From a phage, in the sequence record PX930852.1: DNA of 64,000 nucleotides; one strand, given 5' to 3'. The notes under the pieces were generated by a model that was not told where the DNA came from, made no database searches, and worked only from the letters and a program-made list of their open reading frames with translations. The number at the start of each line of letters is the position of its first letter. Positions within the stretch are counted from its first letter, which is position 1. Shown here piece after piece: positions 32,548 to 50,320 of the stretch. The position numbers and the translations under genes were made by a program.

Positions 32548-33654
32548 TTAGTCTGGTTTAGCGTCAGAACGAACGTCTACCAGCAACTGAGGACGAGTAC
32601 AGTATGGCAGCATGTAAGAGTGAGCTTCAAAGTCGATACCTTCGTCACGGTCTTTTTCGTATTCGAATACGTACAGTTCCTGACCAAGTGTATTTGCATA
32701 ACCCATCTTAGGACATGGACCATATGCAACTTCGAAGATGTTGTTTGCTTCACCCAGCATAGAAACGTTAGGGAAAGCATGACCAACACCAACAGTTGCT
32801 GCTGCACCATCAATGCTCACCAGAGTGTGAACCTTACCACGCTTGTCTTTGAACTTACCGTTGTACTGGACAAACTTAACACCACCGTAGTAGAAAGTGT
32901 TCATGTGGGCCTGAACGCCGTCAGTACCACCAGTTCTCAGAGAACCAGTAATCTGCTGCCAAGCCAGTGGAGTCTGCTGTGCAAGATAAGCGTCACGAAT
33001 CTTAGGATGCTTAACCAGTTTGCTGAAGAACACACGGTCAACAACTACGTGAATTTCTTCACCGTTGATTACAGTGCCAGTCTTAGCTTCGTCTTCCATG
33101 TGCATACGCAGTTCTTCAATAGAAGCGTCGATGTCAGCATTAGGGTTGTCAAGGTCGAAGTAAACAGTCTTCTTCTCAACGTCGAACTGCTTGTACAGGT
33201 CAGCGTACAGAGTACCACGAGCATCAACAACTTTACCCTTCAGAGCTTGCATAAACAGGAACTCACGAGTAATATCGAACTTGGTACGAATCTTCATCAG
33301 CTTCTTAGCACGTACTACAGCTTCAGTAGTCAGTTCGTTTGCAGTGCCTGGCTGACGTACACCCTGAATTTCATCAGGAGTGATGCTTTCAACTTCTTTG
33401 AAGTACATCATTGGGAAGCTGATTTGACGAACACGCTCAGGTGCGCTAGTCTCTGCTTTACGGCTATCACGGTCTACCGCATCAAGCAAGCTAACATCCC
33501 AATCAGTCAAGTCCATAAGGAAAGTAGTTTGGGTGATTGGTGCTGAACGGAACAGACCTAAGTTGGAAATATACCCATAAGTATTTGGGATAGACTGGAC
33601 TTCACCAGTCAGGTCAGCAAGGAAAAATCTGCTTTTTTCAGAATTAGTCAACAT
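32548..33654 (-). CDS. major capsid protein
   Basis: 368 aa; downstream of protease/scaffold gene; strong RBS; expected high-expression position. Confidence 0.7.
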   Translation of the reverse strand: MLTNSEKSRFFLADLTGEVQSIPNTYGYISNLGLFRSAPITQTTFLMDLTDWDVSLLDAVDRDSRKAETSAPERVRQISFPMMYFKEVESITPDEIQGVRQPGTANELTTEAVVRAKKLMKIRTKFDITREFLFMQALKGKVVDARGTLYADLYKQFDVEKKTVYFDLDNPNADIDASIEELRMHMEDEAKTGTVINGEEIHVVVDRVFFSKLVKHPKIRDAYLAQQTPLAWQQITGSLRTGGTDGVQAHMNTFYYGGVKFVQYNGKFKDKRGKVHTLVSIDGAAATVGVGHAFPNVSMLGEANNIFEVAYGPCPKMGYANTLGQELYVFEYEKDRDEGIDFEAHSYMLPYCTRPQLLVDVRSDAKPD

Positions 33655-45189: not shown

Positions 45190-46605
45190 TTACCAGATAT
45201 AACGGTCAATCATTACTGCTTTGAGCATTACGCTGATTGGGTCAAACTTCTCACCACCAAGCAGAGCTTTTAAAGTAGCTGGAGAAAAACCAGATACCAT
45301 TGCTACACCGTTATCCTTAACAGATACTTCGCAAGTACCATTACGGTTTGCTAAGTACCAGAATACCAGTTGAGGCATTTCGTATCCAGCTTTTTTGTAC
45401 TTACTACGAATTGCTTCAAAGTTTGTACGACCGTTAGCTCCATCAACCTGATTGAACTCCATATCGGAGAAGATGATAAGCTTACTTGGCATATCTTTCT
45501 GAGTCAAGTTGTTTCTTTTACCTGTTTCAAGAATACGGTCAAAAGCTGCTTGTAAGTTAGTTGAGCCATATTCAACGTGTCGCATCACCTGACGATGACG
45601 GTTTCGTAAATCACCACTCAGTTCGATGAAGTGAGGGTTTGTTGAATAAACCATCAACTCATTCTTAAAGCAACCTGTATTACGTTCTGCTACATACAAT
45701 GCAAGTGAAACACCAATATCAAGAGCAGTAATTGAACCAAAATTCACCCAAGACATTGAGCTTGAAACATCAGACATACACAAGATGTTTTCACCCTCTG
45801 CCATCCAGTTTGGTAGTGCTTTCCACTGCTCATTAGCAACATCTGCATTACCATGCTTAACAGATTTAATTACATCGTATGGGTAAACAGCGCCAGCATT
45901 AATCTTAGCCTCACCCTTTGATAAGGACTCGATGTAAGCTTTGTAGCGTTCTCCATCTTTGCGGTTAAACAGTTTTTGGTAACGTGCAGCAGCAAGTGAA
46001 GGAATCTTACTGTAGTCAATCTTACCAAACTCATTAGCAGAGATTTTTTGCTCAACTGTATCAGATAGTGCAGACAACAGTGTGCGGTACTCTTTCTCAC
46101 TCAAGTTGGCAAACTTGCAGAAACGTTTTACAAACTGCTTATGACGTGGTTTGACTCGTGGTAACCACTTAGCCGCCAAACCTGCTGTTGCAGGGTCTAG
46201 TAATGCTGCTTCTAGATGTTTGAAGGCATCTGTCTCGAAACGAGTACCTACGAAGATTTTGAAGTCATCAAAACGACCAAGTTCTGCAATCTTATCCATA
46301 ATGCGAAGAACCTGCGTAGGCTCTAAAACTTTGTCTTCAATCGCTTGAAGTAAAACAGTTCTGAAGGCTTTACGCTCACCCATACCTTCTCGTACATCTC
46401 GCATATGAAGCAAAATACGAACTGCAACATCAACATCCTCACGCAAAGCTTTGTAGAACAGGTCTGGTAAGATTTCTACATTGCTACGGCTTGAACCAGC
46501 AGCTTTGTAAAAGTCTACAAGAGCAGACATTGATGAAGTATGGTTTACAGCACCATTTTCAGTTCGACCTGCATGAAGGTGCGCATGTTTAAATAATTCG
46601 CTCAT
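45190..46605 (-). CDS. von Willebrand factor A (vWA) domain protein, possibly Ro60/TROVE-like (Rsr-like)
   Basis: 471 aa; MIDAS motif DVSSS (DxSxS) at about residue 285; helical N-terminal half; lies directly upstream of the tRNA array. Confidence 0.5.
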   Translation of the reverse strand: MSELFKHAHLHAGRTENGAVNHTSSMSALVDFYKAAGSSRSNVEILPDLFYKALREDVDVAVRILLHMRDVREGMGERKAFRTVLLQAIEDKVLEPTQVLRIMDKIAELGRFDDFKIFVGTRFETDAFKHLEAALLDPATAGLAAKWLPRVKPRHKQFVKRFCKFANLSEKEYRTLLSALSDTVEQKISANEFGKIDYSKIPSLAAARYQKLFNRKDGERYKAYIESLSKGEAKINAGAVYPYDVIKSVKHGNADVANEQWKALPNWMAEGENILCMSDVSSSMSWVNFGSITALDIGVSLALYVAERNTGCFKNELMVYSTNPHFIELSGDLRNRHRQVMRHVEYGSTNLQAAFDRILETGKRNNLTQKDMPSKLIIFSDMEFNQVDGANGRTNFEAIRSKYKKAGYEMPQLVFWYLANRNGTCEVSVKDNGVAMVSGFSPATLKALLGGEKFDPISVMLKAVMIDRYIW

Positions 46606-46686: not shown

Positions 46687-47058
46687 TTATTTTTTAAGAG
46701 TCGCTACAGCAGAGAACGTTGGTTTGTTATCTGTCTGTTGTTGACCACCATTATCAGGAGTCTTCTTAGTGTCTGCTGCAAGTGCTTTCATCTCACCTGC
46801 TGAGTGAGTAAAGATAGTTTTACCGACCTCAATCATACTCTTGATGGTTACGTCATCTGTGTTTAACCCGAACTCTGCAAGCTTAGCAGCATCCCTTGTA
46901 ACAATCGCTTCAAATAACTTTGCAGCAAACTCAGCAGAATTGTCAATGGTCAGTTGAGCTTTTACAAGTGAGCTTTTGTTGCGAGAGCCTTTTGGTCTTC
47001 CAGATGGGTTTCCAGATTGGCCTTTTTTAAACTGGCCTTTGTTTGTTCTGTTTTTCAT
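46687..47058 (-). CDS. hypothetical protein with GNPSGRPKG motif
   Basis: 123-aa ORF; basic N-terminus with Gly/Pro-rich motif. Confidence 0.45.
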   Translation of the reverse strand: MKNRTNKGQFKKGQSGNPSGRPKGSRNKSSLVKAQLTIDNSAEFAAKLFEAIVTRDAAKLAEFGLNTDDVTIKSMIEVGKTIFTHSAGEMKALAADTKKTPDNGGQQQTDNKPTFSAVATLKK

Positions 47059-47469: not shown

Positions 47470-47684
47470 AAATCGCAGATATTATAGATTTATATCAAAC
47501 TGCAAAGAGTCATGGCTATATAACCTCAATTGGAAAGAATAGTCACTATGATGCTTTGACTGGAATGTATTTCAGGGCAATGGCTCAATCTAGTGAACAA
47601 CACTTAATGGTTTCTTCCAGTGAGTTTACTTCGTTTCTCTATTGCAGCAAAATCATAAATCGCAGGAGAACTGAAAAATGTTAA
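47451..47684 (+). CDS. hypothetical protein (77 aa)
   Basis: GAGGA RBS. Confidence 0.4.
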   Translation: MCSSQLEIADIIDLYQTAKSHGYITSIGKNSHYDALTGMYFRAMAQSSEQHLMVSSSEFTSFLYCSKIINRRRTEKC

Positions 47685-48268
47685 CAGTAAGTTTTAATTA
47701 CAATAGTGATGGCTCTGTATCAATTAATTCACCATATGCAAATGACCTACTTAAAGAGCTAGTCAATCAGTGTGATAGAGGTCTTCACTATGTTCAAAAT
47801 TCTTTTAAACAGAAGACTATCGCTAATAACTTGATGCGTGTAACAGTAACGGCATCGAATCAAAATTATGACTTTGATAGTGAAAGTCCGTACTCATTAG
47901 TTGCGCTTGGAGAGAGCAGCCAATTCAAACTTGTTTGCCACGACTCAGAAACATTCCTTAAGGTATTTTCCAACCTTATCCATAATAATAAGTACAGCTA
48001 CGTTGATGGTAGTGTAAACTTCTATCCAGCAAATTATACATGTTTGTTGGTTGATAACATGAGAAAGAGTAAGCAAGAGCCTACAGAAATTTCATTTGAT
48101 GTGAACTCTAGTCCAGACGCAGAAACAAGTAAGAACTTTGATATGAGTTACGCATTGTCGCTCAGTAAGAAATCCGAGTTCATTGATTATGTCAATGGAT
48201 TTGGTTTTAAGTTTGATGAGAGTATGAATCTTAAAAAACTTAAAAACCTACTTAAGACCAAAGCTTAA
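47678..48268 (+). CDS. hypothetical protein (196 aa)
   Basis: GGAGA RBS; followed by terminator hairpin at 48277. Confidence 0.5.
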   Translation: MLTVSFNYNSDGSVSINSPYANDLLKELVNQCDRGLHYVQNSFKQKTIANNLMRVTVTASNQNYDFDSESPYSLVALGESSQFKLVCHDSETFLKVFSNLIHNNKYSYVDGSVNFYPANYTCLLVDNMRKSKQEPTEISFDVNSSPDAETSKNFDMSYALSLSKKSEFIDYVNGFGFKFDESMNLKKLKNLLKTKA

Positions 48269-48276
48269 GTGTGAAT

Positions 48277-48300
48277 AGGGGCATCAGCCCCTTTAACTAT
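48277..48300 (+). terminator. rho-independent terminator-like hairpin
   Basis: AGGGGC-ATCA-GCCCCT followed by T-rich tract. Confidence 0.5.
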
Positions 48301-48315
48301 TTATAAGGATATTTA

Positions 48316-48687
48316 ATGAAAGCTAAGAGTGCAAAAGACTTTTATTGCTTCCTACAATCCTATATCAATTCCGTGCAAAATGGTGAAAGGTACAACCTTA
48401 ATGATGTTATCCCAACACCTTTGACATGGAGACTCAGTAAATGGCCTGAAGAAGATATTACACCAACAAGCAAACAACGTACCTACAAACCTGAAATCAA
48501 TATTCCAGACTCTGAGAACCTATTATATCCAATGTTCCATATTGTTGGTCTTGGGAGATTCCTTATGGATATTCAGTATGTAATTGGTAAAGGTTATAAG
48601 GTTAAAGGCATTGTTGTTGGTGATGTATCTCCACACCACAAAGGTTATTTTAGACTAAACGCACATTTAGAGGCTAAAAAGAAATGA
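48316..48687 (+). CDS. hypothetical protein, homologous to N-terminal domain of 48684..49817
   Basis: shared motifs with next gene (GERYNLNDVIPTPLTW.. versus GKRYDFRTYQEAILPLTY..; FLMDIQYVIGKGYKVKG versus FFMDLQYAIINGKDV). Confidence 0.5.
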   Translation: MKAKSAKDFYCFLQSYINSVQNGERYNLNDVIPTPLTWRLSKWPEEDITPTSKQRTYKPEINIPDSENLLYPMFHIVGLGRFLMDIQYVIGKGYKVKGIVVGDVSPHHKGYFRLNAHLEAKKK

Positions 48688-49817
48688 TTAAAGCAAAGAC
48701 TTACCCAGACTTTAAAGAGTTTGTGAAGGGCTTCATTGCAAACGTAAAGGCTGGTAAGAGATATGATTTTAGAACATATCAAGAGGCTATTTTACCACTT
48801 ACCTATAGTTCATATTGGCCTGAAGCTGATATTGCAGAAGTTGAGAAGTTTGACTACAAACCAGACTACAAAGTTCCATTTAGTGATGAATTGCTTTACA
48901 GTGTTGGTGCACAGATGAGAACTGCTGATTTCTTCATGGATTTGCAGTATGCAATCATCAATGGTAAAGATGTTGACACAATTTACTGTGAATGGTTGGC
49001 AAGAGTTAAGCCGTTCTCAATGTTGAATGCTAAGTTGAAGGATGCTATTAAGCCACCAGCAATTACTCAGCAACCAACAGGTCAAACAGTCAATGAGGGT
49101 GGCACACTTACTCTAAGCATTCTAGCAACTAACGCCACTGGATATCAGTGGAAGAAGGATGGTGAGGATATCCCTAGTGCCAATTCTGCAACTTACACAA
49201 AACAGTCAGTAGCACCTTCTGACGCTGGTTCATACACTTGTGTTGTATCTGGAGAGGGTGGAACAAGTGTTACCTCAGATGCAGCAACAGTGACTGTGAA
49301 CGCACTACCTGTGATTACCAAGCAACCTTCTAACCAGACTATTAATGAAGGTGGAAACATCAACTTAGCAGTTACTGCAACTGGTGCAACTGGTTACCAA
49401 TGGAAGAAAGATGGCTCTGACATTCCTTCAGCGACAAATGCTACCTATAGCAAGTCTGGTGCTCTGCCAGCAGATGCAGGTTCATACACTTGCGTTGTAA
49501 CAGGTGCAGGTGGTTCTGTCACTTCTAGCCCTGCAACGGTTATTGTTAACGCACTTCCGGTAGTCACTCAACAGCCAACCAATCAAGAAATCACTGAAGG
49601 TGAGACTTTAACACTGAATGTTGTGGCAACAGGTGCAACAGGTTACCAGTGGAAGAAAGGTGAGGAAGACATCCTCGATGCAACTGCTGCAACTTACACC
49701 AAAGAAGGTGCAACCACTGCTGATGCAGGAAGCTACACTTGTGTAGTTACTGGTGCAGGTGGCTCTGTAACATCTAATGCGGCAACAGTTACAGTTAACC
49801 CAGTAGGAGGGGCATAA
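48684..49817 (+). CDS. Ig-like repeat protein (three tandem Ig-like domains)
   Basis: three about 80-aa repeats each with YQWKKDG..DIPSA..ATY..AGSYTCVV (I-set-like) signature. Confidence 0.6.
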   Translation: MIKAKTYPDFKEFVKGFIANVKAGKRYDFRTYQEAILPLTYSSYWPEADIAEVEKFDYKPDYKVPFSDELLYSVGAQMRTADFFMDLQYAIINGKDVDTIYCEWLARVKPFSMLNAKLKDAIKPPAITQQPTGQTVNEGGTLTLSILATNATGYQWKKDGEDIPSANSATYTKQSVAPSDAGSYTCVVSGEGGTSVTSDAATVTVNALPVITKQPSNQTINEGGNINLAVTATGATGYQWKKDGSDIPSATNATYSKSGALPADAGSYTCVVTGAGGSVTSSPATVIVNALPVVTQQPTNQEITEGETLTLNVVATGATGYQWKKGEEDILDATAATYTKEGATTADAGSYTCVVTGAGGSVTSNAATVTVNPVGGA

Positions 49818-50281
49818 TGCAACTCTCAAGAAAAGGATTAGAAGCTATTAAGTTCTTTGAAGGTCTTAAGCTTGAGGCTTACGAAGATTCTGCTGGAATC
49901 CCCACAATTGGGTATGGGACAATTCGTATTGGTGGGAAGCCTGTTAAGATGGGTATGAAGATTACCGCTGAACAAGCTGAACAGTATCTTCTCGCAGATG
50001 TTGAAAAGTTCGTTGCAGCAGTGAACAAAGCCATCAAGGTTCCAACTTCTCAGAATGAGTTTGATGCACTTGTAAGTGAAACATACAACATTGGTATCAC
50101 AGCTATGCAGGACTCTACATTTATCAAGCGCCACAATGCTGGTAATAAGGTCGGTTGTGCAGAAGCTATGCAGTGGTGGAACAAGGTTACAGTAAAAGGT
50201 AAGAAGGTCACTTCAAACGGCCTGAAAAACAGACGTAGAATGGAAGCTGACATTTATCTTGACAGTGTATACCCAAAGTAA
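49817..50281 (+). CDS. endolysin, GH24 (T4 lysozyme-like)
   Basis: 154 aa; catalytic E..D..T context EGLKLEAYEDSAGIPTIGYGT; followed by strong terminator. Confidence 0.8.
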   Translation: MQLSRKGLEAIKFFEGLKLEAYEDSAGIPTIGYGTIRIGGKPVKMGMKITAEQAEQYLLADVEKFVAAVNKAIKVPTSQNEFDALVSETYNIGITAMQDSTFIKRHNAGNKVGCAEAMQWWNKVTVKGKKVTSNGLKNRRRMEADIYLDSVYPK

Positions 50282-50290
50282 TATCTTCAT

Positions 50291-50320
50291 AGGCTCCTTC
50301 GGGAGCCTTTTTTATTTTCT
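50291..50320 (+). terminator. rho-independent terminator after endolysin
   Basis: AGGCTCC-TTCG-GGAGCCT followed by TTTTTTATTTT. Confidence 0.7.

Follow-up and report, generated by a model that had tools for sequence, protein, structure and literature searches.

The window analyzed here is the whole of a 64,000-nucleotide stretch of phage DNA (sequence record PX930852.1), and this report concerns two adjacent genes in it, at positions 48,316 to 49,817, which lie directly upstream of an endolysin gene. A first-pass annotation had placed two open reading frames (ORFs) there, 48316..48687 and 48684..49817; their coordinates and plus-strand orientation were confirmed. On the matches given below, the long ORF is an ortholog of Bas63 Hex-Dec and Sf14 gp20, a capsid decoration protein that is already known and structurally solved, and the short ORF is a paralog of the capsid-binding domain (CapBD) at its N terminus, without the immunoglobulin (Ig)-like domains. 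The features of the block are listed here.

48316..48687, + strand: CapBD-only paralog, 123 amino acids; member of phrog_4463, with no Ig domain
48684..49817, + strand: Hex-Dec gene, 377 amino acids; N-terminal CapBD plus three Ig-like domains (PDB matches; phrog_3995, E = 2.3e-208)
48684..49043, + strand: CapBD of Hex-Dec, amino acids 1-120; almost identical to the CapBD as modelled in 9ncf_S and 9c2d_S
49053..49304, + strand: Ig-like (I-set/Ig_3) repeat 1, amino acids 124-207; best Pfam Ig_3 stretch at 124-189
49305..49553, + strand: Ig-like repeat 2, amino acids 208-290; Pfam Ig_2 and I-set stretches at 209-288; 67% identical to repeat 1
49554..49802, + strand: Ig-like repeat 3, amino acids 291-373; counterpart of the fourth Ig domain of Bas63 Hex-Dec
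49817..50281, + strand: endolysin (Phage_lysozyme; Pfam PF00959, E = 6.7e-41; phrog_7 endolysin)

Identification of the long gene as Hex-Dec

Searched against the sequences in the PDB, the long ORF gave full-length matches to 9ncf_S (E = 2.3e-293) and 9c2d_S (E = 8e-169). Chain S of 9ncf is Hex-Dec from the capsid of phage JohannRWettstein/Bas63 (PMC12609058), and chain S of 9c2d is gp20 from the capsid of Shigella phage Sf14 (PMC11821841). Hex-Dec/gp20 is a monomeric, Hoc-like decoration protein of the capsid; the hexamers on the threefold axes are empty, and the Ig-like domains point outward and are unresolved in the maps (PMC12609058; PMC11821841). The Sf14 anchor is held by salt bridges from Arg79 and Arg107 to Asp221 of three subunits of the major capsid protein (MCP) (PMC11821841). 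Both arginines are kept in the window Hex-Dec. Across its orthologs Arg79 is invariant, and Arg107 is present in all loci but one (L009, which reads LVRVN, with the Arg shifted). The window MCP is ~99% identical to 9ncf_A, with Asp221 kept and the KIRD-AYL motif present.

The first-pass annotation had remarked that Ig-like domains in phages usually decorate virions or bind carbohydrate; that the protein decorates the virion is borne out by the capsid structures of its ortholog, Bas63 Hex-Dec/Sf14 gp20. The Felix O1 ortholog, gp36, whose gene lies beside that of lysin gp35, was also found in purified virions by mass spectrometry in 2010. As judged from its sequence, the long ORF has every testable feature of an Ounavirinae Hex-Dec (CapBD homology, the contact residues, and the Ig domains), and we found no evidence that contradicts the identification. 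The CapBD of the window protein would accordingly be expected to sit as a monomer in the center of the pentamer-proximal hexamers of a T=9 capsid, as shown for the Sf14 and Bas63 orthologs, and to be held by the same Arg79/Arg107 salt bridges to Asp221 of the MCP, with the three I-set Ig domains projecting outward from the capsid. By analogy with T4 Hoc, the probable role of the Ig domains is to attach the particle weakly to surfaces, to mucus, or to other particles.

The claim that the long ORF carries three tandem Ig-like repeats is supported by Pfam profiles, which located three Ig stretches (Ig_3, E = 7.6e-32; Ig_2, 1.4e-26; I-set, 1.5e-24). Pairwise identity between repeats is 67-71% as protein and ~67-71% as DNA over longer alignments. 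Tandem Repeats Finder reported nothing between 48300 and 49900, because the repeats are too diverged in DNA. A second HMMER domain showed window residues 200-376 to be nearly identical to 9ncf_S residues 283-459, so that repeat 3 of the window corresponds to repeat 4 of Bas63, and the length difference (four Ig domains in Bas63 versus three in the window) reflects the gain or loss of a whole repeat. The Hex-Dec proteins of related loci fall into length classes of 210, 294, 377, and 461 amino acids. The Bas63 authors have reported that Felixounavirus Hex-Dec carries one to four Ig domains and that its common annotation as a tail protein is wrong (PMC12609058). The window thus adds one more three-domain variant to this family.

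The short gene encodes a CapBD-only paralog

The N-terminal module of the long ORF had been proposed to be homologous to the whole preceding ORF. We ran the pairwise alignment, and BLASTP aligned the short ORF with long-ORF residues 2-100 at 38% identity (E = 6e-17), far beyond chance. The relationship was recovered at the profile level in both directions (short ORF to phrog_3995, E = 6.7e-15; long ORF to phrog_4463, E = 2.5e-16). Over its full length the short ORF belongs to phrog_4463 (E = 4.7e-80), a family with no assigned function that includes Felix O1 gp37, wV8 gp042, and AYO145A_042; the VpaE1 counterpart is ORF40c. Pfam gave no matches to the short ORF, and among the PDB sequences it matched 9ncf_S and 9c2d_S only (E ~1e-11).

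Structure prediction, which the first-pass annotation had suggested as a check, led to the same two chains. The AlphaFold2 model of the short paralog had a pLDDT of 65.7, sufficient for finding both solved CapBD chains but too low for surface analysis, and a pTM of 0.67. In a Foldseek search of the PDB with this model, only 9ncf_S and 9c2d_S were significant (TM score of 0.62, probability of 1.00). Sequence matches and predicted structure agree in assigning the CapBD fold to the short ORF. When 1.84 billion representative proteins were searched exhaustively with a profile, 12 clusters with the domain were obtained, none with a functional annotation; the CapBD family is therefore very small. 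A word-indexed protein search with the short ORF returned close family members only and no distant relatives.

The homology had been read as a local duplication. A tandem duplication is borne out, with the qualification that it is ancient rather than recent: the paralogs share 30-38% identity, and a divergent 87-kb metagenomic phage (L032 in our set of loci) already carries both. The short paralog is 45% identical there, and in 233 of 253 phage records it forms an intact ORF whose length does not vary. Its median pairwise ratio of nonsynonymous to synonymous substitution (dN/dS) is 0.126, versus 0.044 for the CapBD of Hex-Dec, with dS above 1 in the deeper comparisons, and the short gene's evolutionary rate is two to three times that of the CapBD. 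It has long invariant blocks specific to its family (e.g., LLYPMFHIVGLG and HKGYFRLNA); its net charge and pI are scattered across the family (-4 to +6) and uninformative. The pattern of substitution identifies the short paralog as a real gene under purifying selection.

Remodeling of the capsid-contact surface

In a joint alignment of the two families, 35 columns are conserved and identical in both, and we read these as the core of the fold. A further 44 columns, conserved within either family, differ from one family to the other; many of them fall in the second half of the domain, which holds both capsid-contact arginines of Hex-Dec. Where Hex-Dec has Arg79, the paralog has an invariant Gly. 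In place of Arg107 it has His in the window and Q, H, R, or N elsewhere. A contact surface that was remodeled and then fixed speaks for an altered binding specificity and against drift. As read from the alignment, the short ORF lacks the Arg79/Arg107 contact pair, and it has no Ig display domain; more evidence would be needed before it is classed as a decoration protein.

The paralog is not among the virion proteins reported in the Felix O1 proteome (as gp37), the VpaE1 proteome (as ORF40c), or the Sf14 table. Both cryo-electron microscopy (cryo-EM) studies found no density on the unoccupied hexamers (PMC12609058; PMC11821841).

Natural loss and recombination of the paralog

Two kinds of natural variant were found among the phage records searched.

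L031 2306-2497: REP8-type remnant of the short paralog (Escherichia phage REP8, OQ174507.1)
L030 2501-3379: chimeric single gene, 292 amino acids (Salmonella phage SP3_SHan-2021, MW296865.1)

The REP8-type remnant is a pseudogene with a 226-nucleotide internal deletion that has also lost its start codon. It is common to 19 records of E. coli, Shigella, and Salmonella phages, whose carriers include REP5-12, Shigella phages Tf and Z31, mio, SP116, and fBSPA4. In SP3_SHan-2021, residues 1-48 of the single gene derive from the paralog and the remainder from Hex-Dec, with the crossover at the WPE-DI motif that the two have in common; this recombinant is unique among the records. The deletion and the chimera together show that the paralog is dispensable for propagation.

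Weighing the interpretations

We put the probability that the locus as a whole consists of a known Hex-Dec and a CapBD-only paralog, set in an old conserved block, at about 0.9. Several points weigh against parts of this account. For the Ig domains, the role in adhesion is carried over from T4 Hoc and not from any Felixounavirus. The AlphaFold2 model of the paralog is of moderate confidence (pLDDT of 65.7). At the Arg107 position the residue varies and Arg is not lost throughout, being kept in L032 and in the protein P0041. Finally, the absence of the paralog from virions is negative evidence; a low-copy component, e.g., one with 20 copies on the threefold hexamers, could be missed.

For the role of the paralog, our tentative suggestion is that it would still recognize the center of the MCP hexamer, or else Hex-Dec, though binding would be transient and confined to head assembly, and that it would serve as a placeholder or loading modulator that is not kept in the finished particle. 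We favor such transient binding as a working idea, with the odds still against it. Slightly more speculative is the extension that the paralog is a dedicated regulator of decoration, a display-less copy of the anchor that acts on hexamers or on Hex-Dec in head assembly, for example by plugging prohead or threefold hexamers or by setting the number of sites that Hex-Dec fills. To our knowledge, no such regulatory component has been described in Hoc-like systems.

The strongest competitor, itself unlikely, holds that the paralog is a second structural decoration protein that has been overlooked, placed on the 20 threefold hexamers left empty by Hex-Dec or at some low-copy site. Its fold is that of a proven hexamer-center binder, its gene adjoins Hex-Dec with overlapping stop and start codons, and a contact surface that changed and was then conserved could suit the threefold hexamers, where Asp221 is shifted (PMC11821841). 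A monomer on a strict threefold axis would moreover be smeared by icosahedral averaging, and P0059 (described below), the sole CapBD protein of a distant lineage, is Ig-less, so a bare CapBD can work. The other hexamers, however, were without density in both cryo-EM studies, and the paralog is unreported in Felix O1, VpaE1, and Sf14 virions although smaller and rarer proteins were detected in them. Decay is far less probable than either kind of function. A functionless remnant of the duplication might be expected to behave as the short ORF does: one lineage (19 records) has lost it, recombination has removed it from one phage, and it evolves at two to three times the rate of the CapBD; yet the ORF is unbroken and uniform in length in 233 of 253 records and present in a relative at 45% identity, and the selection analysis contradicts decay (dN/dS of 0.13 with dS above 1, and long family-specific invariant blocks).

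Two further readings concern the long ORF and are more improbable still. Relative to the short ORF, the long one is in the -1 frame, and a slip on AAA-AAG within T-AAA-AAG (48675-48681) would reach the Hex-Dec ATG with no stop codon between, so that a programmed -1 frameshift could fuse two tandem CapBDs to the Ig domains. The slippery hexamer is absent in Mooglevirus (gctaataaATG and gctaagaaATG) and in L032, the Felix O1 virion contains gp36 at its unfused mass of 31.6 kDa, and the solved chains begin at Met1 of Hex-Dec. We rejected the fusion, as the slippery site is not conserved, and T-AAA-AAG is probably incidental. The least credible reading makes the Ig-repeat protein a tail protein, as most GenBank records and phrog_3995 label it, or a part of the lysis machinery, given the adjacent lysin. 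Two cryo-EM structures place its ortholog in the centers of capsid hexamers (PMC12609058; PMC11821841), its PHROG "major tail protein" matches are limited to the Ig repeats, and the long ORF has no membrane, signal, or cell-wall-binding domains. Identity as a tail protein is refuted by PDB entries 9ncf and 9c2d.

Comparison with other decoration proteins

The closest known system, Bas63 Hex-Dec/Sf14 gp20, resembles the window protein in its nearly identical CapBD with Arg79 and Arg107, its I-set repeats, and its lysin-adjacent gene. The published work on Bas63 and Sf14 does not mention the CapBD-only paralog directly upstream; in the Bas63 paper the word "paralog" is never used, and "duplicate" occurs in the methods only (PMC12609058). 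Neither the Felixounavirus comparative-genomics paper nor the UAB_Phi87 paper mentions the paralog.

T4 Hoc is likewise a decoration protein of the monomeric, non-essential type that sits at hexamer centers, with a string of Ig-like domains on a small capsid-binding domain and a presumed adhesion or environment-sensing role. Its capsid-binding domain, however, is C-terminal, whereas that of the window protein is N-terminal; the two anchors show no sequence similarity and have distinct topologies (for topology, PMC12609058). PHROG matches to Hoc-like families cover the Ig region only (residues 120-293 and 296-370). The long ORF is thus Hoc-like in action without being a member of the T4 Hoc family. 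We know of no binding-domain-only paralog of T4 Hoc. T5 pb10 has an architecture in common with the window protein but carries one Ig domain and a binding domain unrelated to the CapBD. The pb10 structures 5lxk_A and 8zvi_a align to Ig-region residues 131-207 only, and the long ORF shows no homolog of the pb10 N-terminal capsid-binding domain, which places it outside the pb10 family.

Genomic setting of the block

The features outside the gene pair and endolysin to which the analysis refers are as follows.

47678..48268, + strand: 196-amino-acid ORF, phrog_4034; upstream neighbor of the CapBD gene(s)
48277..48292, + strand: GC hairpin, AGGGGC-ATCA-GCCCCT, then a T-rich run; directly upstream of the paralog
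50291..50318 (also given as 50291-50308), + strand: strong intrinsic terminator after the endolysin; seven-pair stem with 5 GC pairs, then TTTTTATTTT
32548..33654, - strand: MCP, binding partner of Hex-Dec (9ncf_A, E = 3.7e-247)

The 2.8 kb around the locus matched 251 phage records, the best being Escherichia phage Andreotti (98.1%). All but one of the matching records (250 of 251) are Escherichia, Salmonella, Shigella, or Citrobacter phages or Felixounavirus, the exception being Staphylococcus phage SA1. These nucleotide matches assign the window to Felixounavirus, the genus of Felix O1-like myophages. In phage AYO145A the orthologs of the paralog, Hex-Dec, and endolysin are AYO145A_042 (hypothetical), AYO145A_041 ("tail protein"), and AYO145A_040 (endolysin).

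Genes of the block have start codons that overlap or abut the preceding stop codons: the paralog stop and Hex-Dec start overlap in ATGA, and the Hex-Dec stop and endolysin start overlap in TAATG. The ATGA overlap and a GAGG Shine-Dalgarno sequence are kept in relatives, and on this conservation the translation of the two genes is possibly coupled. The terminator 3' of the endolysin, which is also annotated as a terminator in AYO145A, closes the paralog/Hex-Dec/endolysin block. At the other end, the hairpin at 48277-48292 is kept in Felixounavirus, Mooglevirus, and L032 with varying loop sequences; it was missed by a simple terminator scan and is an annotated rho-independent terminator in AYO145A. 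A search for a sigma-70 promoter between this hairpin and the short ORF found none, so that the genes 3' of the hairpin stand without a recognizable sigma-70 promoter, though the hairpin is annotated as a terminator. An Rfam search near the locus returned tRNAs only.

To follow the gene order, we collected Felixounavirus and Mooglevirus loci that carry both paralogs. The order 196-amino-acid ORF, short paralog, Hex-Dec, lysin was found in all 29, two of which end after the short gene. The same order occurs in L032, where the CapBD is 57% identical. More distant contigs have a homolog of the 196-amino-acid ORF, a CapBD protein, and a lysozyme; the short paralog is absent. One of these, L034, carries Big_2 in place of I-set as its display domain and a homolog of the 196-amino-acid ORF in the equivalent position (28% identity, E = 2e-21). 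In two metagenomic contigs (L035, 5001-5462, and L036, 952-1413), the sole CapBD protein is P0059, a 153-residue protein with a lysine-rich tail and no Ig domain, encoded between a 185-amino-acid gene, in the position of the 196-amino-acid ORF of the window, and a lysozyme gene. The anchor on its own can therefore be the only form, and a working one. The 196-amino-acid ORF holds the equivalent position in every complete related locus and may be functionally tied to the decoration gene.

The position beside the lysis gene had been called unusual in the first-pass annotation. The oddity is real and has been noted before: the Felix O1 authors remarked in 2010 that the gp36 gene lies well apart from the other morphogenesis genes, and the Bas63 authors repeated the remark in 2025 for the Hex-Dec gene (PMC12609058). 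Hex-Dec adjoins the lysin because both belong to an old conserved block outside the structural module. It presumably has no role in lysis, and no sequence feature points to one. The block is likely expressed late, and co-expression of late accessory genes would be the simplest reading of it.

The MCP gene lies ~15 kb from the Hex-Dec gene, on the opposite strand. Farther upstream of the block, 22 tRNA genes are clustered on the minus strand at 40728-45025, followed by genes for a DUF2828/DUF7788 protein (45190-46605) and a DUF5681 protein (46687-47058). Genes of these two kinds also lie upstream of the block in L035 and in L038, as in the window.

Discussion

The structure of the Ig-repeat protein, its site on the capsid, and its odd genomic position are already published. 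Within the structural and genomic literature searched, the CapBD-only paralog is the sole part of the locus that had gone undescribed, Hex-Dec itself being known. For phrog_4463, the present analysis adds the link to the solved CapBD fold, the evidence of selection, the remodeled surface, and the natural loss.

Nearly all Felix O1-like and Moogle-like phages keep an Ig-less copy of the capsid anchor directly before Hex-Dec. Phages of the deletion lineage typified by REP8, Tf, mio, and SP116, together with the chimera of SP3_SHan-2021, constitute ready-made natural mutants of this arrangement. Felixounaviruses are widely used in the biocontrol of Salmonella and E. coli, and Hoc-type anchors are used for display. 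Because of these uses, whether the bare anchor competes with or assists the loading of the displayed protein would be of some practical value.

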